64,000 nucleotides of DNA, from sequence record PV467748.1; one strand, written 5' to 3'. The number at the start of each line of letters is the position of its first letter. Positions within the stretch are counted from its first letter, which is position 1. The notes below the pieces were generated by a model, which ran no database searches, was not told the origin of the DNA, and worked only from the letters and a program-made list of their open reading frames with translations. This DNA is from a phage. Positions 4,697-27,278 of this stretch are shown here, one piece after another. The position numbers and the translations under genes were made by a program.

Positions 4697-5545
4697 TTAA
4701 TAAACGTAATCGTATATAATACCAGCTTCTAAAGTGGTGCGATGAATAATTCGACCATTACGAGATTCTTGTACATCAACCTCTGGATAGTCGGTAATCA
4801 TTTTTTGAAGTGTATACCGGTGCAAATAATACGGGCTATCCGGGTCATCTGTTTTCCAGTCTTTGCCTTCAAGAGTCATTTTCTGGATTTCATCCATAAC
4901 CCACCAACCGCACCAAATATAAGCTGAATTACGTACTGGCAATGGATGAACGTAAGGTAATTCGCCATCCGGAACCGGTGCGACTTTAGCCGTGACCGTT
5001 ACATTACCGGTTTTTGTGACAGTCGCCTGGTTATAATCAGCCGCCGAAACCACAACAGAAACTTCAATAACCTGTGAACCTTCGGTGCTTGTGTCGATTG
5101 TTAGAGTATCCGTGGTGCCAACTACAGGAGAACCGTCTTTCTTCCAAGAATAGGCAAAAGTAGCGCCAGCAGGCGCGCCGACTACATCCGCTTTAAAAGA
5201 AGCTGGAGTGCCTTCCGGAACATTAATTGATTCTGGGGTTAATGTCACAGAAACACCAGACATAGTTTTATTCTGGATAGTTAAAGTCGTCTCAGCTTCA
5301 GCAGTTTCCGGTTCGCCGTCCGCTGGTGTAGTTGTTGCAACAACTTTAATAGTCTTGCTGCCTGCTGGACCAACAGCAACATAATCCATTGCAGCAGTCA
5401 CAGAAGATTGAGGAACGCCATCAACGGTCCAGACAAATGATTCAGTACCTTCAGCTGCAGCACCGGAACCGGTCGCAGTGAAATTGGTTGTTGCTCCAAT
5501 AACGGCCGTAGCCGCCAAAGGAGAAATATCTACGGTATAAGCCAT
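4697..5545 (-). CDS. hoc: Hoc-like outer capsid decoration protein (Ig-like repeats)
   Basis: 282 aa; repeated Ig-like Thr/Val-rich segments; C-terminal Trp/Tyr-rich domain; T4 position between rnlB and inh. Confidence 0.65.
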   Translation of the reverse strand: MAYTVDISPLAATAVIGATTNFTATGSGAAAEGTESFVWTVDGVPQSSVTAAMDYVAVGPAGSKTIKVVATTTPADGEPETAEAETTLTIQNKTMSGVSVTLTPESINVPEGTPASFKADVVGAPAGATFAYSWKKDGSPVVGTTDTLTIDTSTEGSQVIEVSVVVSAADYNQATVTKTGNVTVTAKVAPVPDGELPYVHPLPVRNSAYIWCGWWVMDEIQKMTLEGKDWKTDDPDSPYYLHRYTLQKMITDYPEVDVQESRNGRIIHRTTLEAGIIYDYVY

Positions 5546-5554
5546 AATAAACCC

Positions 5555-6226
5555 TTATTTTAAAGTGACAAAAGATGAGTTACGAGTTTCTCGTACTAGA
5601 ACAGACCCATTACGATTGATGTAATAAATCAAGCTGAATAGTGTTTGGTGTGCGGTAGGATGTTGGAAAGCAGTTGGACGTTCTTTCCAATCCGGAGTCT
5701 CAGAAATCCATTGGTAAATCCACCAAGGAACAGTGCAATAACCTGGGTTCTTACCGATAAGCAAAAGATTAGGACTGAAGTTTTCAGGTAAAGAGAATAC
5801 AGGTTTTTCAGATTCAACAACCTTGGCTACAGCCTTTTTGAATTTCTCTTCGTCAAATGGAACATCCTCTTCGATAATCTCTACCTTAGGAAGTTCGGCT
5901 ACCTCTATTACTTCAACAACTGCCTCAGGAGCATCGAACAACAGGGTTGCTTCTTCTTTAGCTGGTTCTACACCTTCGATAAAATCATTATCACCAGTGA
6001 GTTCGTCAGCAGCATCAATCAAATCAGAAATAGACAACCCGTCTGTTTCCGGAAGTGGTTCGTCAGCCAAGGCTTTAAGGCCTTCAGAGATATCGATAAT
6101 CAAATTATCAAACGAACGGGTTTTCTTAAGTTTTAAACCGAACTGTTCGCCGTATTCGATTAACTTAGCTTTAGCTTCTTTTTTGTCTTTGAGTGCACGA
6201 AGCTCTTCAATATATTGAGTATCCAT
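5555..6226 (-). CDS. inh: Inh-like inhibitor of prohead protease
   Basis: 223 aa, acidic middle region, size and position as T4 inh. Confidence 0.55.
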   Translation of the reverse strand: MDTQYIEELRALKDKKEAKAKLIEYGEQFGLKLKKTRSFDNLIIDISEGLKALADEPLPETDGLSISDLIDAADELTGDNDFIEGVEPAKEEATLLFDAPEAVVEVIEVAELPKVEIIEEDVPFDEEKFKKAVAKVVESEKPVFSLPENFSPNLLLIGKNPGYCTVPWWIYQWISETPDWKERPTAFQHPTAHQTLFSLIYYINRNGSVLVRETRNSSFVTLK

Positions 6227-6245
6227 AATTAGTCTCTTGTTGGTG

Positions 6246-6253
6246 TATAAATA
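6246..6253 (+). promoter_or_regulatory. T4 late promoter TATAAATA upstream of uvsW
   Basis: Exact TATAAATA about 28 nt upstream of uvsW ATG. Confidence 0.55.
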
Positions 6254-6259
6254 TAACTA

Positions 6260-6267
6260 TATTTATA
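6260..6267 (-). promoter_or_regulatory. T4 late promoter TATAAATA (minus) upstream of inh/hoc
   Basis: Plus-strand tatttata = rc TATAAATA, divergent from the uvsW late promoter. Confidence 0.5.
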
Positions 6268-6281
6268 ACTGAGAATTACTT

Positions 6282-7778
6282 ATGCAAATTCAAGTACATT
6301 TTGATAATTTTAGTCATGTCCGTATCGAGTGTGATGAATCCACATTCTACGAACTCAGAGACTATTTTAGCTTTGAAGCTGATGGGTATAAATTCAACCC
6401 TAAATTTCGTTATGGGCAATGGGATGGACGTATTCGTCTTCTGGATTATAACCGTAAACTTCCTTATGGATTGGTTCCGCAAATTAAAAAGTTCGCCGAA
6501 CAATTTGAATATTCTCTGTGGATTGACCCACGTATTCTTGAACAGGAAGATATTTCTCGTGAAGATTTTGACTCATGGGTAGCTTCTCAAGAAATTTATT
6601 CAGGGTCTACCAAGATTGAGCCTCATTGGTATCAGAATGAAGCTGTATACAACGGCCTGACAAAACGTCGCGCAATTCTGAATTTACCTACATCCGCAGG
6701 TAAATCATTGATTCAGGCGCTCCTGAGTCGATATTACGTTGAGAACTATGAAGGTAAAATTCTTATATTAGTTCCTACTACTGCACTTGTCGACCAGATG
6801 ATTAATGACTTCATCGATTATAGATTGTTCCCTAAAGCAGAAATGCTTGGTATTCGTTCAGGTACTGCTCGTGATTCTGATGCAATGATTTACGTTTCAA
6901 CTTATCAAACTGCTATCAAGCAACCTAAAGAATGGTTTGCTCAGTTTGGTATGTTTATGAACGATGAATGCCACTTGGCTACAGGTAAATCTATTTCTAC
7001 TATCATCGAAGGCCTAACCAACTGTATGTTTAAATTCGGTTTGTCTGGTTCTTTAAAAGATGGTAAAGCTAATTTAATGCAATATATGGGTTTGTTTGGT
7101 GATGTGTTTAAGCCAGTATCCACCTCCCAGTTAATGGAAGAAGGACAGGTTACCGACCTTAAAATCAACAGTATTTTCCTTCGATACCCAGACGAATTCA
7201 CTGTTAAGATGAAAGGTAAAGATTACCAATCAGAAATCAAGGTCATTACTAAGGCTACTCGTCGTAATAAATGGGTTGCTAATTTAGCTGTTAAACTCGC
7301 TAAGAAAGAAGAGAACGTATTCCTGATGTTTAAAAACATCGAACACGGTAAAACTCTTTTTGAAATGGTTAAAGAGCAACATAAAGAAGTTTATTACGTA
7401 TCAGGTGAAGTTAATACCGAAACGCGTAATGCTCTGAAAGTAATGGCGGAAAATGGTAAGGGTATTATTGTTGTTGCAAGTTATGGTGTGTTCTCTACTG
7501 GTATTTCCGTTAAGAACCTTCATCACGTTGTATTTGCCCACCCAGTAAAATCCAAAATCATTGTACTCCAGACAATTGGTCGTGTACTCCGTAAACATGC
7601 CTCTAAATCAACAGCACAGGTATGGGATATCATCGACGACATGGGTGTTAAGCCTAAATCAGCTACGGCTAAAAAGAAATATGTTCATTTGAACTACGCC
7701 CTCAAACACGCTTTAGAACGTATTCAACGTTATGCTGATGAGAAATTTAATTACGTAATGAAACAGGTGGATTTATGA
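6282..7778 (+). CDS. uvsW: UvsW RNA-DNA and DNA-DNA helicase
   Basis: 498 aa; near-collinear with recalled T4 UvsW (HFDNFSHVRIECDESTF..., Walker A LNLPTSAGKS, DECH box MNDECHLATGKS, QTIGRVLRKH). Confidence 0.95.
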   Translation: MQIQVHFDNFSHVRIECDESTFYELRDYFSFEADGYKFNPKFRYGQWDGRIRLLDYNRKLPYGLVPQIKKFAEQFEYSLWIDPRILEQEDISREDFDSWVASQEIYSGSTKIEPHWYQNEAVYNGLTKRRAILNLPTSAGKSLIQALLSRYYVENYEGKILILVPTTALVDQMINDFIDYRLFPKAEMLGIRSGTARDSDAMIYVSTYQTAIKQPKEWFAQFGMFMNDECHLATGKSISTIIEGLTNCMFKFGLSGSLKDGKANLMQYMGLFGDVFKPVSTSQLMEEGQVTDLKINSIFLRYPDEFTVKMKGKDYQSEIKVITKATRRNKWVANLAVKLAKKEENVFLMFKNIEHGKTLFEMVKEQHKEVYYVSGEVNTETRNALKVMAENGKGIIVVASYGVFSTGISVKNLHHVVFAHPVKSKIIVLQTIGRVLRKHASKSTAQVWDIIDDMGVKPKSATAKKKYVHLNYALKHALERIQRYADEKFNYVMKQVDL

Positions 7779-8229: not shown

Positions 8230-8356
8230 GATTGTCTCCTTAGTTTAACTTACATATCTATTTATTACTTGATAAAGCAGTATTAATGAATTCTTGAAGA
8301 AGTTTCATTTTATCGGCATCTACTTTAATGGGTTTGGTATTTTTAGTACGTCTCAT

Positions 8357-8791
8357 TTATTTACCTGCCTCAAATTGTCTCATCTCATGCATGGTCTTAA
8401 GGTTAAAACCACGCGCCTTAATAGCATCAAGTGCTGAACTACAAAAGTCCTGTAATAAAGCCCAATACTGAATTGATGTGTCGATTTTAATTACACTAGA
8501 ATCCGCAGCCATAACGGTCTTTAATTCAGACTTCTCATACTGGTCCATACAAACCTCATCACCAGGCTCTCCACGTCCCGTGTAGAAATCTAATCGCTTC
8601 TTAAGTGAGGTCTTTTTCTGGATTTCTAATCTCATTATTTCTTTCTTACAATTCGTATACAGCCTTAGCCATTTGCTGTGCAGCAAAACGTTGTTCTGTA
8701 CTTCATATTGTAAACGAGTTCCATCAATCTTTAAATCCTCGTCTAATGCGTCCTGAAATGATTCTAATTTATATTCAATCTCTTTACTCAT
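8357..8791 (-). CDS. uvsY: UvsY recombination mediator
   Basis: ORF track 8357..8824; start moved to Met12 (MSKEIEYK...) with AGGA RBS; collinear with recalled T4 UvsY (LQYEVQNNVLLHSKWL, KSELKTVMAADSSVIKIDTSIQYW, RQFEAGK). Confidence 0.9.
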   Translation of the reverse strand: MSKEIEYKLESFQDALDEDLKIDGTRLQYEVQNNVLLHSKWLRLYTNCKKEIMRLEIQKKTSLKKRLDFYTGRGEPGDEVCMDQYEKSELKTVMAADSSVIKIDTSIQYWALLQDFCSSALDAIKARGFNLKTMHEMRQFEAGK

Positions 8792-16440: not shown

Positions 16441-18564
16441 CTACATTTTGAATTTATTTGATAAAGAAGAGATATCCAAAGACGCTGCAAGGATTTCCAT
16501 AGCTTCGTTGCTTTCAGAAACGGATTCATTAACCAAGAATTGACTAAATCCATCCATCAGGCGAACTTCACCAGTTTCCATCAAATGGTCACCATCGTAA
16601 ACAGATTCGCTGAGCTCTGAAGGAGGTGTTACGGTAGCTTCCATAAGGTATTTGTGAGATACTCTATCATTCATGGCAAAAGCCGCTACTTTATCAACCT
16701 TCAACAATAATCCGCGCGGAAGGATAATTTCTGCTTCTTCGGCATATTCTGTAAGGTCACCAGGAGCGATAACTTTAACTGCTTCAGCACCTCGAATAAC
16801 CATACCAATTTCAGCAATTCTATCTGCAGGACCTTCAGGTGCAATTGGATTACCAAACTCGTCTTCTTCCCATTCTACCTCTTCGTCATCGACTTCACCC
16901 ACATCAGATGAACTACCACTAGCCAATTTAAACAACTCATCAGCTGAGGACAAAGAACCTTCACCACCAACAAAAACGGCTTGGTTGTCGAGGGCCATAT
17001 AATTTTTACCGAATTCACCAAAGATGTTAGGCTTTAATGAGGCTGACACAAAGTTCTTAAAGTAAAATGTTTTGTTATCGATATTATGGCGCAGAATTTT
17101 GTATGGCAAATCCTGACCACGATACAAAATAGTACCCTTAGGAAGTTTAATACCCTTAGTAAATGCTGAGTCTAAATCCTTAATCAATTTAATAGCCGTT
17201 GTATTGTTTTCGGATTCAGGTTTACCTAAAAGGAATAAGTTCATAGGAGCATATTCAGCCGCGCAATATTCAATAATAGCATTGCTTTCGTCTTTGGTTA
17301 GGTCCTTAGGTTTAATGAGCTCGCCTGAATAAGCATATGCATCACTAATAGAATCGTTAACCAGTTTATAAACTGCTTCCATAGCGAAAGCAATTCGAGA
17401 GGCCTTTTCTGAAGGGGAACCCTTAAAACGGGTACTCAGGTTATTAACAATTTTCTTAATAATATCCAGACTATTGGTTGTATTGATTTGCGAAAGACCA
17501 CTTAAAAGTCTATCGACTTCTGTATTAAAAAATGCCATATTATTAGAGTAAATTTCAAACCCTTGTTTATCTCTATTAGCATAATTTAGTTTAAATTTAC
17601 TATCAGTCATTAAAGCGTGTGTGAGAGCAATAGTGTATCTAAAGTTGGCAAGGTCCTCGCTCTTAGATTTAAACTGAGAAGCCTGGCGCATTTTAGTAAT
17701 AGCACCTTTTTTAAAGTTCTGGCTAATCTGTTCAATACCTTCATTCTCAGGGCCTTCAGCCGTGTGAACAGGTACAGAAGCTTCAAACTCATTATAAACC
17801 TGCAATTCTTTAGGGGACAAAGTTTCAGGTTCGGCAGTAGAATACTGCGCCGCTGCTGCCATACGACGGGAAATCTTAGTACGGGTAATGACAGCCTTAT
17901 CGGTACGTTTCTCTTCAACTTGTGCAATAGATGCCGCTACTGCTTCAACCTTACTTACGGCCTGGCCGGTTTTCTTAGAAACATACACTTCGCCAACTTT
18001 AGACTCAACTTTAGTATAAAGATCGGCATTAATTTCAGGCATACCCTTGATATCTTCAATATTAGCACCACGACGTACTAAAAGAACGTAGGTATGTTTT
18101 CCGCTGAATTGGAACATGTCGTCAACAACTTTAAACTTACCACCGGTACGAGCCATAGCCAAACGAGCTAATACGCGCTGAACGGTAGGGCCCTTACCTT
18201 TCATTTTCTTAGTAGGGAAACGGAACAGAACTGCGTCCATTTTAAGTTTGTTTATTTGTTCGTATATGGTATCGAAAATGGTGTTCAGTGTACCAAGTGG
18301 ATCGGTACCCAACCCGCCCTTGAGTTCTGCCGGAGCGCCTTTAGCTGACAAACTCATCAAAATAACATGAACATATTTGTCGCCCGGCTTAACCATTTTA
18401 ATAGCGTCTCCTTGAGACGCATAAGATACCATACGAGCAACCAGATTATCATTACCTGGTGCTTGGATAGAGAAAATCTGTGGAATACCGGAACCCGGTT
18501 TAAGATTTGTTACTGGATAGTTTTTAGCGGAATCACTATCAAAAACCTCATTTAAATTTTCCAT
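16441..18564 (-). CDS. Alt-like ADP-ribosyltransferase paralog 1 (707 aa)
   Basis: N-terminal module shared with the two upstream paralogs; C-terminal R-S-E ART signature (LYRGQ, FVSASL, EAEIILPRG). Confidence 0.8.
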   Translation of the reverse strand: MENLNEVFDSDSAKNYPVTNLKPGSGIPQIFSIQAPGNDNLVARMVSYASQGDAIKMVKPGDKYVHVILMSLSAKGAPAELKGGLGTDPLGTLNTIFDTIYEQINKLKMDAVLFRFPTKKMKGKGPTVQRVLARLAMARTGGKFKVVDDMFQFSGKHTYVLLVRRGANIEDIKGMPEINADLYTKVESKVGEVYVSKKTGQAVSKVEAVAASIAQVEEKRTDKAVITRTKISRRMAAAAQYSTAEPETLSPKELQVYNEFEASVPVHTAEGPENEGIEQISQNFKKGAITKMRQASQFKSKSEDLANFRYTIALTHALMTDSKFKLNYANRDKQGFEIYSNNMAFFNTEVDRLLSGLSQINTTNSLDIIKKIVNNLSTRFKGSPSEKASRIAFAMEAVYKLVNDSISDAYAYSGELIKPKDLTKDESNAIIEYCAAEYAPMNLFLLGKPESENNTTAIKLIKDLDSAFTKGIKLPKGTILYRGQDLPYKILRHNIDNKTFYFKNFVSASLKPNIFGEFGKNYMALDNQAVFVGGEGSLSSADELFKLASGSSSDVGEVDDEEVEWEEDEFGNPIAPEGPADRIAEIGMVIRGAEAVKVIAPGDLTEYAEEAEIILPRGLLLKVDKVAAFAMNDRVSHKYLMEATVTPPSELSESVYDGDHLMETGEVRLMDGFSQFLVNESVSESNEAMEILAASLDISSLSNKFKM

Positions 18565-18567
18565 TAT

Positions 18568-20652
18568 TTACCCTTGGATGAATTTTTCTGGGATGTCATA
18601 GAGGTCTATGCATGAAGCCAAAAGAGGCAGTACATCAAACCGGGTAGATTTAACAAATGAATCAAAAGATACAGGGCTTTCGGAAGTATCGAAGTCATCT
18701 TGGTATACAACCAATTCACCAGTTTCCATTAGTACGTCACCATCATACACTACAGATTCTTGAAGCTCATCTGTTGTCATAACTTCAGCTTGAATGAGTT
18801 TTGTATTATTAGATGTTGTTCCATCATTATTAGAAGCATCTGTTATTTTATTAACTTTGACCATTAATCCACGTGGTAGAATAACTTCAGCTTCAGTTGC
18901 TATTCCGAGATTTCCTGGATATACAACATTAACTTTATGAGCACCGTCAATTGCCCATCCTATTTGAGCTTTAACGTAATCAGGATTTTCCTTATACGCC
19001 CTTATTTCATTAGGGTTAATAGTTATTCCTTCTTCATTTTTATCGACTGTCAATTCATTGCGAACTTCCGGTTCTAAAAGACCGATACCAGCGTGTGTAA
19101 CACCAAATCGTCCAAAAATGATAGGGGTTAAAGAAGTAGATACAAAATTTCTGAAATAGAACACTTTATTTTTAACTAGTGCTTCGTATATAGGAGCAGT
19201 CATACTCTGGGCACGATAAACTGTGATGCCTTCTGGTATACGGTCGCCGTTTTCAAAAGCTGAATCTAAATTATTTATCGCAGATTCAATTTCTTTTTCA
19301 CTCATTACCTCATATCGTTCTGGATTGTAGCGACCTAAAAGAAGATTATTGATGTCAGTATATCCTGAACCACAATATTCTCTGATACCACGCTTTTGTG
19401 ATGGAGTATATTTAGAACCCTCACGAGCAATAGTAATATCAACCATAATACCGCCACCTACACCAGCAAAACTATAAACACATTTTTTAATGAACTTGGT
19501 CTTAGTGGCTTTCCACTTGGACTCGGTTAATTCATTCCAGACGTCGTCAGGTTGACCTTTACGAGTTTTGTTATGCTTGGCCAACCATTTGGCTTTGTAT
19601 TCTTCGAAAATGGTATTAATAGCAGAGGCATATTTTTCTAGAGCTTTAACAGATGTCAAAGGTTCGTTTTTGATGGCCGCAAGAATTTTATCTTTAATTT
19701 TCTCTTGGATTTCACCTATACCGTGAAGAGGAAACATTTTGTAATCGTAATGCAATTCTTCAGCAGTGCCTTCAGCTATTATATTAGCAACCTTATTTTT
19801 AGCCGCAGGAGAATTGTTATTAGTAACCATTTCCTGGGCCTCAGGGATTAATGGAGCTGTTGCTGGTTTATTAAAATCCACTGCAGTAGCTTCATATTTC
19901 TTAAACAGTTCACTTTCATTACGATAAGATTCTAACGATTGACTTGCTGCAATAGCACGACGCGAAATCTTAGTCTTGGTTATAACCATTTTATCAGTGC
20001 GACGTTCTTCAACTTTAGCAATACTGCCGGCAATAGCAGTTTCTTTAGTAACCTGCACACCTTCTTTTTTAGAAATATAAACTTCACCGACATCAGAATC
20101 TACCTTAGTGTATAATTCGGAATTAATTCCAGGCATACCTTTGATATCTTCGATATCAGCTTGTTTACGAACTACTAGAATATAAGTATGTTTACCAGTA
20201 AATTGGTACATAGCCGGAACTACTTTGAAGCGTCCACCTGTTTTTTGAGTTGCCAAACGTTGGATAATCCGTTGGACGATAGGTCCTTGCCCTTTCATTT
20301 TCTTGGTTGGAAAACGGAACATCACAGCATCCATACGAAGCTTTTTAACTTGTTCGAATACTACGTCGAAAATGGTATTAATAGCATCAATAGGAGTAGG
20401 GCCTAAGCCGCCTTTAAGTTCGGCTGGAGAACCTTTAGCTGAAAGGCTCATAAGGATAATGTGGGCGTATTTATCACCTAATTTAACCTGTTTAATAGCA
20501 TCGCCTTCAGAGGCATAAGATACCATACGAGCAACCAATTGGGATTCAGCATCGCCAATCTTCCAAATCTGGGGTACTTTAAGTTTTGGGTTTAAGTTTA
20601 CAGTAGGCAGGGTGCCTTCGGACTCAAACACCTCATTCAATTGTTCGGTCAT
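18568..20652 (-). CDS. Alt-like ADP-ribosyltransferase paralog 2 (694 aa)
   Basis: Same N-terminal module; C-terminal TVYRAQ, FVSTSL, EAEVILPRG. Confidence 0.8.
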   Translation of the reverse strand: MTEQLNEVFESEGTLPTVNLNPKLKVPQIWKIGDAESQLVARMVSYASEGDAIKQVKLGDKYAHIILMSLSAKGSPAELKGGLGPTPIDAINTIFDVVFEQVKKLRMDAVMFRFPTKKMKGQGPIVQRIIQRLATQKTGGRFKVVPAMYQFTGKHTYILVVRKQADIEDIKGMPGINSELYTKVDSDVGEVYISKKEGVQVTKETAIAGSIAKVEERRTDKMVITKTKISRRAIAASQSLESYRNESELFKKYEATAVDFNKPATAPLIPEAQEMVTNNNSPAAKNKVANIIAEGTAEELHYDYKMFPLHGIGEIQEKIKDKILAAIKNEPLTSVKALEKYASAINTIFEEYKAKWLAKHNKTRKGQPDDVWNELTESKWKATKTKFIKKCVYSFAGVGGGIMVDITIAREGSKYTPSQKRGIREYCGSGYTDINNLLLGRYNPERYEVMSEKEIESAINNLDSAFENGDRIPEGITVYRAQSMTAPIYEALVKNKVFYFRNFVSTSLTPIIFGRFGVTHAGIGLLEPEVRNELTVDKNEEGITINPNEIRAYKENPDYVKAQIGWAIDGAHKVNVVYPGNLGIATEAEVILPRGLMVKVNKITDASNNDGTTSNNTKLIQAEVMTTDELQESVVYDGDVLMETGELVVYQDDFDTSESPVSFDSFVKSTRFDVLPLLASCIDLYDIPEKFIQG

Positions 20653-20660
20653 AATAATTC

Positions 20661-22556
20661 CTATTTAAATAAATTTGATAATTTTTCCATAGAATCTTCG
20701 TAAAGGATTTTATCATAACTTTCAAATGAAAGTACTGTGCTATACGAATTTTCTTCTGTGATTTGTTCAGAACCAATAACTTCGCACTCCACCAATACGT
20801 ACTTACCTATAGAACCCATAAGACCTTTAGAAGCACCATACACTTTATTAATTTTAAGCATTACGCCTCTAGGAAGAATAACCTCAGTTTCTGTAGACCA
20901 ATTTGCCAAATTACCTGGTACGATAACTTTAATTTTGTCCGCGCCTTTAATAATTAATCCAAGCTTAATTGTCTCTCTAGCACTTCCGGTTGCACTTTTA
21001 ATTGTGTCTTCTAGATTATTATCTATATCGCTAGAAAGAGCTTCGGGATCTAAATTTGATTGAGCGTGTCCCATTTCGCCAAAAATATTAGGAGCTAATG
21101 AGGTAGATGCGAAAATAGGAAGATACATTACTTTATGTTTTATTGAATTCAAAGCCATTTCGGTGGGCATTATTTGAGATCGATACACTATAGTTCCTTT
21201 AGGGAGCTTTGTACCGTTTTCAAAAGCAGAATCCATATCACCAATCATTTTTATCATTTCATCAGTAGTATCTGTTTTACCTAATAAAAAGTTGTTAATG
21301 TGATTATATCCACCGCGAGTGTACTTTTTGATAGCCTCTTCTTGAGGTTTAGTTAAATTGGGATTGTCATCTATTTTAAACAAAGGTTGTATAGATTTGG
21401 TATAGACTGCTACTAATGATTTTATTACTTCTTTTATTTTAGATTCTCTAGCCCATGTACCTTTAACTGAACCATCTAAAAGAGATGCGGCAACTAATCT
21501 AAGGACGTCCACATGTGTTTTACCTGATTTTAAAGCATTTATAACACCATTAGATTTATCTAAAGAATCTGATGATTCTAAAGCAAACTTTATATCTTTA
21601 ATTAATTTAAGCCTATGCTCATCTATTTCAAACGACGGATTAACACCATTAAAAATATAATCTAAATATTCTGCCATTTCTTTAGAAGTATCTTTTAATA
21701 CTTTAATACCGGCTGACGCTATTTGGCTTTCTTTAGAACCTTCAGAAGAATGCACTGAACTAGTAATAGATAAATCGGAGTAAACTTTTTTATGTTCTTC
21801 TGAAAATTTATTCAATCCTGACGGTTCTGATGTTGAGTATAGTGCATTTATTGCGGCTCGTTTAGAAACCTTTGTTTTGGTTATAACCATTTTATCTGAA
21901 CGAGATTTTTCTATTTCATCTATAGATTTAGCTATGGCTTCTAGTTTAGTAACATCTTCACCTGTTTTCTTTGAAACATATACATCACCAACTTCAGATT
22001 CAACTTTAGTATATAACTCAGCATTAATATTTGGGATGCCTTTTATAGATTCTATATTTTTATTTTTACGGTAGATAAAAACATATGAATGTTTACCACT
22101 GAATTGGTACAAGGCGTCAAGGACCTTGAATTGTCCACCCGCTCTAGAAGCTATCAATTTGGCTAGGACTCTCTGTACGGTTTTTTCCTGCCCTTTCATT
22201 TTCTTGGTTGGAAAACGGAACATCACAGCATCCATACGAAGAGCTTTAATTTGTTCATAGACTATATCAAATATGGAACGAATAGCTGAAATAGGATTTG
22301 TGCCTAGCCCGCCTTTAAGTTCAGCCGGCGTACCTTTAGGAGATAGGCTCATTAAAATAACATGCACGTATTTATCACCCGGCTTAACTTGTCTAATGGC
22401 ATCACCTTCTGAAGTATAAGAAACCATTCGCGCTACAAGGTTATCATTACCTTCTGCCTTTATATTCCAAATCTGTGGTACTTTAAGTTTAGGGTTTAAA
22501 TTAATAGCAGATAAATCTACATCCCCATCAAATATTTCATTTAGTTGTTCAGGCAT
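20661..22556 (-). CDS. alt: Alt-like ADP-ribosyltransferase paralog 3 (631 aa)
   Basis: Same N-terminal module; C-terminal IVYRSQ, FASTSL, ETEVILPRG; adjacent to ligase side as T4 alt. Confidence 0.8.
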   Translation of the reverse strand: MPEQLNEIFDGDVDLSAINLNPKLKVPQIWNIKAEGNDNLVARMVSYTSEGDAIRQVKPGDKYVHVILMSLSPKGTPAELKGGLGTNPISAIRSIFDIVYEQIKALRMDAVMFRFPTKKMKGQEKTVQRVLAKLIASRAGGQFKVLDALYQFSGKHSYVFIYRKNKNIESIKGIPNINAELYTKVESEVGDVYVSKKTGEDVTKLEAIAKSIDEIEKSRSDKMVITKTKVSKRAAINALYSTSEPSGLNKFSEEHKKVYSDLSITSSVHSSEGSKESQIASAGIKVLKDTSKEMAEYLDYIFNGVNPSFEIDEHRLKLIKDIKFALESSDSLDKSNGVINALKSGKTHVDVLRLVAASLLDGSVKGTWARESKIKEVIKSLVAVYTKSIQPLFKIDDNPNLTKPQEEAIKKYTRGGYNHINNFLLGKTDTTDEMIKMIGDMDSAFENGTKLPKGTIVYRSQIMPTEMALNSIKHKVMYLPIFASTSLAPNIFGEMGHAQSNLDPEALSSDIDNNLEDTIKSATGSARETIKLGLIIKGADKIKVIVPGNLANWSTETEVILPRGVMLKINKVYGASKGLMGSIGKYVLVECEVIGSEQITEENSYSTVLSFESYDKILYEDSMEKLSNLFK

Positions 22557-24303: not shown

Positions 24304-24614
24304 TTTACCGTCCTTACAGTTTGTGTACTTCTATTATAAGCTACTTCATCTAAAAGCTCATTTAAAGTTTTGTGATACGATATAATACGCTTATCTTTAA
24401 TATCGTATTCAGTAACATACATAAATCCGCGCCGAACACATTGGATAAAGATATCTTCATCTTTGGCTTGGAAATATACAGGGTTCAATCGAAGGAAATA
24501 TCTAACGTTTCCATAATCATGGGATTTAGGCGTTCCATCAGTAATAGTATGAACTACAAACATATTAACCTCGAGCAATCCATTCAACTGCAGCGTTATT
24601 ACGAAGGGATTCAA
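24300..24614 (-). CDS. Hypothetical protein (30.1-like), start uncertain
   Basis: 104 aa ORF overlaps upstream gene by about 50 nt; internal Met17 would abut it. Confidence 0.4.
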   Translation of the reverse strand: MNPFVITLQLNGLLEVNMFVVHTITDGTPKSHDYGNVRYFLRLNPVYFQAKDEDIFIQCVRRGFMYVTEYDIKDKRIISYHKTLNELLDEVAYNRSTQTVRTVK

Positions 24615-25203
24615 TTGCTGCGATATCGTCCCATGAATTAACCTTTACGGCCAGATTAGGTTTAAAGTCACGTTCACCACGGGCCAACCAATAAACTTGG
24701 ATATCCATGAGAACATTAGATGCGGCATCACAGTGGTGAGCCAAATCATCGACATAAAACTTAATGCGTTTGCCGTATGTATTTTTAGCTCTTATGAACA
24801 GGTCTTCTTTTGATTCTGAATGACCACACATCAGAATCTCCTTGAATGCGCCAGGGAACAAAGCATTCAAATTGAATTGTCTATTCAGCAGGGCGTCAAT
24901 TGAGTCGCCTAGCGCAGTCACGGCTACAAAATCGAAGTCTTTTTTGAGCTTGTTGATGTGTTTTAATGCGTCCATGTAAGGAGACAGATAACGAATAAAA
25001 TCCGACTGATTATATTTCTCAATTAAACGTGCGCCTAATTCGTCGTCACAATTAAACAGTTCGCCTGGAGATAAGAAACGTTCGTCCTGAATCATATTCA
25101 AAATATGTTCTAAAGGCAAATTATATTTCTGTGCGAAATAAGGCAAGCCGGACTGCCAACTTAAACACACTCCATCGATATCTGTTAAGATAACTGGTTT
25201 CAT
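24565..25203 (-). CDS. HAD-superfamily hydrolase, putative 5'-nucleotidase-like (30.2 position)
   Basis: N-terminal ILTDIDGV (HAD motif I) and later YVDDL acidic motif; 212 aa. Confidence 0.55.
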   Translation of the reverse strand: MKPVILTDIDGVCLSWQSGLPYFAQKYNLPLEHILNMIQDERFLSPGELFNCDDELGARLIEKYNQSDFIRYLSPYMDALKHINKLKKDFDFVAVTALGDSIDALLNRQFNLNALFPGAFKEILMCGHSESKEDLFIRAKNTYGKRIKFYVDDLAHHCDAASNVLMDIQVYWLARGERDFKPNLAVKVNSWDDIAAIESLRNNAAVEWIARG

Positions 25204-25667
25204 AATAAATCTCTCAATTTGTTTAGGATGTCGATAAACTCTTTTTCAGTTAGTATTGTATCACATTCTGTAAGGTGGCTTGCCATTGAATGCTTTAAAA
25301 CCTTACCTTTAGCGGCTTGTAACGCATCTCGGAATCCTTTGTTCTGGAGCGCTGCTTCAAAATATGCATTTGTATACAACTCTTTCCATGCTGCAGAGTA
25401 TCTTGAAAAGGGAATTCCAAGCCAGAAAAGCGTCCCACGGTCCGCAGCTCTTGCATAAGCTCTTCCACTTTGCTGGGCGGCCAATCCGGACATCCCAAAT
25501 ATACGTTTTTGTTGTTCAATATTTTTCACCTTACACCCTTGGAGGAATCCTTCGAGTCCACCAAATTGGATACCATCCATAACGAAAGGCCATTTAGCAA
25601 AGTTACTTAATGCGCATGATGGCCACGGAAAGTTACTTCTAATTTCTAACTCAGACATCTTTGACAC
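25200..25667 (-). CDS. NADAR/YbiA-like (DUF1768-type) protein, 155 aa
   Basis: ALSNFAKWPFVMDGIQFGGLEGFLQGCKV parallels recalled E. coli YbiA FSNFAAWPIKVDGKTWPTSEHYFQAQKF. Confidence 0.55.
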   Translation of the reverse strand: MSKMSELEIRSNFPWPSCALSNFAKWPFVMDGIQFGGLEGFLQGCKVKNIEQQKRIFGMSGLAAQQSGRAYARAADRGTLFWLGIPFSRYSAAWKELYTNAYFEAALQNKGFRDALQAAKGKVLKHSMASHLTECDTILTEKEFIDILNKLRDLL

Positions 25668-25863
25668 TTATAATTTCGACATCGGCCCAATGCCCGTAAC
25701 CAGGCAGACGGTCTTTAATAGATAATCCACCGTCAGACTTCAGCATTTTAATTGTTTTGGTATACGGTTCATCTTGTGGTTGCACAGGAGATAAATCAGT
25801 TACACGATAAGTCACTTCGACCATTTCCGTACCTAATAATTTCTGAATCAGTTTCTTAAACAT
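25651..25863 (-). CDS. Hypothetical protein, 70 aa
   Basis: ORF in tightly packed minus-strand early cluster. Confidence 0.4.
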   Translation of the reverse strand: MFKKLIQKLLGTEMVEVTYRVTDLSPVQPQDEPYTKTIKMLKSDGGLSIKDRLPGYGHWADVEIISVKDV

Positions 25864-27252: not shown

Positions 27253-27278
27253 AAAAATGGGACTCCGAAGAGTCCCAT
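27253..27278 (-). terminator. Intrinsic terminator (minus) after small basic ORF
   Basis: Hairpin tgggactc-cgaa-gagtccca followed on the transcript by UUUUUGUUU. Confidence 0.6.

Follow-up and report, generated by a model that had tools for sequence, protein, structure and literature searches.

A predicted DNA ADP-ribosylglycohydrolase of the AdfN type encoded by gene 30.3 of a T-even phage

NADAR proteins reverse the guanine ADP-ribosylation carried out by DarT1 (Schuller et al., Mol Cell 2023, PMC11543638), and a phage NADAR clade was classified by De Souza and Aravind (2012), as cited in PMC11543638. The T4 protein gp30.3 has been named AdfN, for "anti-DarT factor NADAR" (Johannesman et al., Nat Commun 2025, PMC11825919). 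The DarTG1 resistance of T-even phages was mapped to gene 30.3, with adfN both necessary and sufficient, and the purified protein by itself removed ADPr from DarT1-modified DNA in vitro; T4 AdfN showed no binding to DarT1, and its full activity was seen only in T-even infections (PMC11825919). In a separate study, T4 gp30.3 was found to hydrolyse guanine-ADPr, not thymidine-ADPr, in vitro, and did not relieve uninfected cells of the toxicity of DarT1 (Cihlova et al., Toxins 2024, PMC11125620). Independently, a transposon-sequencing preprint found T4 30.3/adfN to be dispensable on E. coli K-12 and conditionally essential solely when DarTG1 is present (bioRxiv 10.1101/2025.11.20.689424).

Several other factors invite comparison. 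AdfN(Bas32) and AdfN(Bas60), of T5-like and Vequintavirinae phages, are likewise stand-alone phage NADARs which counter DarTG1 and not DarTG2, but they belong to other, independently acquired NADAR clades and neutralise DarT1 without phage infection. The product of T4 tk.4, AdfM, follows a similar strategy, being a phage-carried orphan antitoxin-like ADP-ribosylglycohydrolase (bioRxiv 10.1101/2025.11.20.689424); it differs in its macrodomain fold, in its anti-DarTG2 action on the thymidine modification made by DarT2, and in residing at another locus than adfN. On the bacterial side, DarG1 (BC4488 family; E. coli C7, G. lovleyi 8bat) carries an N-terminal extension, is encoded beside darT and, unlike T4 AdfN, rescues DarT1 toxicity in uninfected cells, while E. 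coli YbiA (PDB 2b3w) is encoded on the chromosome, in an operon under LexA control (PMC11125620), and has a role in riboflavin metabolism. At one position of the last strand, the YbiA family has Glu, the DarT1-linked BC4488 family has Asp, and the gp30.3 NADARs of phages have His (PMC11543638, PMC11125620). Here we describe the corresponding gene in a phage that, over 3 kb around 30.3, shares 97% identity with Escherichia phage fDHCT2 and 94% with JS98, of the genus Dhakavirus, which places it, on sequence grounds, among the JS98-like (Dhakavirus) T-even phages. We found no mention of a Dhakavirus allele in the AdfN paper (PMC11825919).

Gene 30.3 and its reading frame

The DNA analysed, hereafter the window, is a stretch of 64,000 nucleotides (record PV467748.1). 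The ORF table of the window contains the minus-strand frame to which the earlier note had drawn attention, 155 aa long from a GTG (25200..25667), and the segment quoted from its product, ALSNFAKWPFVMDGIQFGGLEGFLQGCKV, was found verbatim. The gene, however, is likely to start three codons inside the GTG at 25667, with the ATG at 25658. The same ATG is the annotated 30.3 start in T4, JS98 and RB69, whose products of 152 aa (T4 and JS98) and 137 aa (RB69) begin ATGTCTGAG / ATGCCTGAG. The GTG was rejected as a start, T4 having GCA at this position and every annotation taking the ATG; the three additional codons are probably not translated within gp30.3. That the frame is coding is beyond chance, given its match to Pfam PF08010 (E=1.7e-64) and the tblastn matches of its product in 1511 phage records. 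The features of the locus are collected in Table 1.

Table 1. Features of the gene 30.3 region and of the nearby ADP-ribosyltransferase (ART) genes, in window coordinates
Feature	Coordinates	Strand	Description
Alt-like ART 1	16441-18564	-	707 aa; PF03496 E=2.6e-17
Alt-like ART 2	18568-20652	-	694 aa; PF03496 E=2.2e-36
Alt-like ART 3	20661-22556	-	631 aa; PF03496 E=2.5e-15
Gene 30.2, downstream neighbour	24565..25203	-	HAD-superfamily phosphatase fold, resembles 5'(3')-deoxyribonucleotidases; phrog_420 E=1.5e-70
adfN / gene 30.3 CDS	25200..25658	-	152 aa from conserved ATG; NADAR-fold DNA ADP-ribosylglycohydrolase (predicted)
30.3 stop codon TGA	25200-25202	-	
Residues 138-152, C-terminal alpha-helix	25203..25247	-	Intact; helix 138-151 in model
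H123 codon CAT	25290..25292	-	Last beta-strand (120-124, model); phage gp30.3 NADAR signature
K43 codon AAG	25530..25532	-	T4 AdfN K43, YbiA K55; aligned to Lys in AQKF
E36 codon GAA	25551..25553	-	T4 AdfN E36, YbiA E48; catalytic ribose-contacting Glu; aligned to Glu in SEHYFQ
Gene 30.4, upstream neighbour	25651..25863	-	phrog_2042 E=3.3e-34
Extra codons GTG TCA AAG	25659..25667	-	Inside 3' end of gene 30.4; homologue clusters and annotations have 152 aa

The position of 30.3, between 30.4 and 30.2 and relative to the ligase gene, is as in T4, JS98 and RB69, and the whole order 30.4-30.3-30.2-30.1-30, with its start/stop overlaps, is common to the window and T4. The stop codon of 30.4 (TGA, 25651-25653) lies inside 30.3 (ATGTCTGA), an arrangement shared with T4 and JS98, and because this stop overlaps the 30.3 start by 8 nt, translational coupling of the two genes is suggested. 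At the other end, the 30.3 stop and the ATG of 30.2 overlap by 4 nt (ATGA), again as in T4.

In T4, a further gene of 75 aa, 30.3', is annotated as overlapping 30.3. Its counterpart occupies window positions 25295-25519 on the minus strand, in the +1 frame inside 30.3, and has only a TTG start; stop codons break the frame in JS98 and RB69, so that conservation of 30.3' as a gene is improbable, and it was rejected on this account.

As to transcription signals, a MotA-box plus TATAAT pattern had 5 matches in the window against 0.43 expected, none of them in the 30.x cluster, and a sigma-70-like scan of 22.5-29.5 kb gave sites no more numerous than chance. A strong terminator-like hairpin (ATGGGACTCTTCGGAGTCCCAT then TTTTGTTTCT) is present on the minus strand at 27257-27278, between ORFs matching 30.9 and 30.8, and is a possible boundary between transcription units, upstream of the 30.8-30 cluster.

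Family, fold and signature residues

The product of 30.3 matches Pfam PF08010 (Phage_30_3) with 216 bits (cut-off 36) over positions 2-138 of the 138 of the profile, and its PHROGs family is phrog_652. It is identical to JS98 gp30.3 at 91% of positions and to T4 gp30.3 at 132 of 152 (87%), with zero gaps and the same 152-aa length, so that T4 residue numbering, the alignment being gapless, was used directly. The 20 substitutions relative to T4 are mostly conservative, and fall above all between residues 47 and 72 and within the C-terminal third of the protein. T4 AdfN, which comes from a Tequatrovirus, and the window allele, which comes from a Dhakavirus (JS98-like), thus have in common sequence, length, gene order, the residues E36, K43 and H123, and the C-terminal helix, and by sequence and gene order the window gene is orthologous to T4 gene 30.3 (adfN). 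The 1511 phage records with tblastn matches are mostly Straboviridae of Escherichia, Klebsiella, Shigella, Aeromonas, Acinetobacter and Vibrio, and an exhaustive profile search recovered 1387 cluster representatives of the gp30.3 family at E<=0.001.

Elsewhere, the PF08010 domain was seen fused to LGT (prolipoprotein diacylglyceryl transferase), an FtsW/RodA-like membrane domain, a GDSL lipase or BspA-type leucine-rich repeats, and also in tandem copies (fusion and tandem proteins P0123, P0143, P0045, P0139, P0024 and P0023). Architectures of this kind, some of which are membrane-linked, have a cellular look and are not accounted for by a role in DNA repair.

The earlier note had called the product NADAR/YbiA-like, and had proposed a search with the Pfam NADAR model (PF08719) as a check. 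That search gave no match to the single protein at E<=1, nor did the protein match anything in NCBIfam, in PADLOC or in a single-sequence search of the PDB. This miss does not refute a NADAR fold, because Pfam models the phage gp30.3 clade separately, as PF08010; some more distant PF08010 members had sub-threshold PF08719 matches (E=1.6e-4 and 3.8e-4) spanning the whole domain. Single-protein searches having given nothing, the link to NADAR could be made only through profiles and structure. A 10-sequence family profile, run against the PDB with hmmsearch, had one match, E. coli YbiA (E=0.001), and the segment so aligned is the one that the earlier note had quoted; with a 65-sequence profile, YbiA was the sole significant match (E=0.0007). 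By hhalign, the family alignment matched YbiA with a probability of 94.5% and E=7.9e-8 over 137 columns, which extend along both proteins, and the 10-sequence alignment did so with 87%. The YbiA segment given in the earlier note, FSNFAAWPIKVDGKTWPTSEHYFQAQKF, agrees exactly with the E. coli K-12 protein (residues 29-56), and 11 of its 28 positions are identical in the 30.3 product; a pairwise BLASTP of the two proteins gave 16/51 identities (E=3e-5). A real distant relationship had therefore been recoverable by reading the raw sequence.

Structural comparison led to the same family. YbiA was the best PDB match by structure as well as by sequence and, among viral predicted structures, the matches beyond close homologues were proteins named NADAR. 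The predicted structure has the NADAR fold, with model confidence low over the N-terminal ~20 residues, and the 152-aa product is accordingly modelled as a stand-alone NADAR domain.

The residues which matter in T4 are retained. E36 and K43 correspond to residues contacting ADP-ribose in PnNADAR, and the E36A and K43A mutants of T4 AdfN are defective (PMC11825919); both residues are identical in the window and T4. Across 65 family members sharing 31-42% identity with the window protein, E36 is invariant, as are N19, H123 and T137, and K43 is at least 90% conserved. In the hhalign alignment, H123 falls within one residue of E125/H126 of YbiA, the exact register being ambiguous.

It is at this last-strand position that the earlier description stands only in part: the NADAR assignment holds, by profile homology and fold, whereas the YbiA-type assignment does not, His replacing the Glu that defines the subfamily. 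Two memberships were considered and rejected: (i) the YbiA subfamily, whose last-strand Glu (E125 in YbiA and PnNADAR) is His123 in every gp30.3-family member examined, overall identity to YbiA being ~20%, and (ii) the DarG1/BC4488 subfamily, which has Asp where the window protein has His, the latter being moreover a bare 152-aa domain, with neither the N-terminal extension nor a DarT gene beside it, its neighbours being 30.2 and 30.4. The product is a member of the gp30.3 clade of phage NADARs.

The C-terminal helix bears on whether the window allele is functional. The RB69 gene (8268-8681 of its locus) ends after residue 137, without this helix; the RB69 allele is frameshifted and DarTG1-sensitive, and an RB69-like truncation lowers the activity of T4 AdfN (PMC11825919). 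Among close relatives, many products in clusters P0004-P0006, P0013, P0015, P0016, P0019 and P0022 are recorded with a shortened length of 86-126 aa, which suggests either that adfN has repeatedly been frameshifted or truncated in T-even phages, or that the short products are artefacts of gene calling. The commonness of such shortened products, with the 137-aa RB69 protein as an example, lends something to the view that the window gene, too, could be a decayed or weakened allele devoid of protective effect. We regard this as very improbable, the window copy being of full length, with the same terminal residue as T4 and JS98, and having kept E36, K43, H123 and the terminal helix.

Neighbouring genes and alternative roles

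A HAD nucleotidase-like neighbour had been proposed from the sequence, and gp30.2 indeed has a HAD fold in its AF2 model (pLDDT 94), for which Foldseek returned HAD hydrolases of the PDB at E of about 1e-8 to 1e-6, 5'(3')-deoxyribonucleotidases among them; the entries matched include 2jao, 4mum, 2i7d and 3bwv. Its invariant motifs are D8-x-D10-G and D152-D153, while in sequence it matches NT5C only weakly (E=0.081 with Pfam, E=0.13 with a profile against the PDB). The protein has 212 aa in the window and JS98, 278 aa in T4 (5475-6311 of its locus) and 271 aa in RB69; similarity stops at about residue 194, and the C-terminal tails differ among genera. Nothing on gp30.2 came up in a search of the literature.

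The pairing of the two genes varies among phages. A 30.2 homologue directly adjoins 30.3 in T4, JS98, RB69 and Acinetobacter phage KARL-1, and lies two small genes away, within about 500 bp, in a Klebsiella Slopekvirus; no 30.2 homologue was present within 4 kb of 30.3 in Vibrio phage VS2, Aeromonas phage CC2 or CcrColossus. In CC2, the 30.3 homologue is not beside 30.2 and ligase. Conservation of the pair from E. coli to Acinetobacter straboviruses, together with the apparent translational coupling of 30.2 to 30.3 and with the full activity of T4 AdfN in T-even infection only, could be read as a sign that gp30.2 is a helper or pathway partner of AdfN, disposing for example of the released ADP-ribose or of a phosphorylated product, but the two genes are apart in the Vibrio, Aeromonas and Caulobacter phages, the text of the T4 transposon screen names adfN alone as the DarTG1 hit (bioRxiv 10.1101/2025.11.20.689424), and purified AdfN is active by itself in vitro. 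Such a partnership appears unlikely to us, and an obligatory one is unsupported, adjacency being conserved in part only.

The resemblance of gp30.2 to deoxyribonucleotidases also enters into a second reading, according to which the 30.3 product would be a YbiA-type housekeeping N-glycosidase acting on small molecules (such as reactive riboflavin-pathway intermediates or free nucleotide derivatives) and not on DNA. This would accord with YbiA being the best PDB match by both structure and sequence, and with the situation in Aeromonas phage CC2 (L008, 3965-8411), where the homologue lies a few genes from those for ribose-phosphate pyrophosphokinase (PRPP synthetase) and nicotinamide phosphoribosyltransferase (NAMPT; NAD salvage), a nucleotide/NAD metabolism context. 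Yet the Glu125 that defines the YbiA subfamily is invariantly His in the gp30.3 family (PMC11543638), the phylogeny in the AdfN paper sets the gp30.3 clade nearest the DarT1-associated NADARs (PMC11825919), and the T4 orthologue acts on DNA, DarTG1 resistance being its sole known phenotype. We therefore give a small-molecule role very little weight.

The presence of three ARTs, one of the grounds on which counter-defence or self-protection had been suggested, was borne out by tandem Alt-like ADP-ribosyltransferase genes at 16441-22556. Enzymes of the Alt type are protein-arginine transferases. For comparison, T4 has one full alt gene and the remnants alt.-1 and alt.-2.

In such a setting AdfN might reverse collateral ADP-ribosylation of nucleic acids by the three Alt paralogues and by ModA/ModB, although the latter two were not located in the window. 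The ART genes lie 2.6 kb from 30.3, an alt-ligase-30.2-30.3 neighbourhood is seen again in Acinetobacter phage KARL-1, and the fact that T4 AdfN is fully active only during T-even infection may be counted on the same side. T4 adfN insertions are, however, cost-free on E. coli K-12 without DarTG1, homologues exist in phages without an alt gene within 4 kb, and protein arginine is what Alt-type ARTs modify, whereas the NADARs tested are specific for guanine-ADPr (PMC11125620). Protection against the phage's own ARTs is thus without support, T4 adfN being dispensable where DarTG1 is absent, and we consider it highly unlikely.

Proposed role against DarTG1

By contrast, the other function that had been suggested from the sequence, an ADP-ribosylation counter-defence possibly directed against DarT, is supported by the 87%-identical T4 orthologue, which hydrolyses guanine-ADP-ribose on DNA and counters DarTG1. 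In our estimation, with a probability of roughly 0.88, window positions 25200-25658 encode an AdfN orthologue acting as a guanine-ADP-ribose DNA glycohydrolase that counters DarTG1. In the proposed sequence of events, the host DarT1 toxin would ADP-ribosylate guanines in replicating phage DNA, and AdfN would hydrolyse the N-glycosidic bond of guanine-ADP-ribose, freeing ADP-ribose; a replicable template would thereby be restored, and the phage would escape DarTG1 abortive infection. AdfN would be expected neither to bind the toxin nor to act on the thymidine-ADP-ribose of DarTG2.

For the window gene, this analysis shows directly that it is orthologous and syntenic to T4 30.3, and that its product has the fold, retains the catalytic residues and is complete at the C-terminus; its chemistry and phenotype are presumed to be those established by the T4 experiments, and by the same analogy we infer that the window allele is active. 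A further partner may be needed, because T4 AdfN works fully only in T-even infection.

Family, fold, chemistry and phenotype were already known from work published between 2012 and 2025, and no new biology is claimed. What the comparison provides is a functional name, adfN, that can be given with confidence to a gene which records of JS98-like phages still list as a "hypothetical protein", together with the prediction that this phage would resist E. coli carrying DarTG1.
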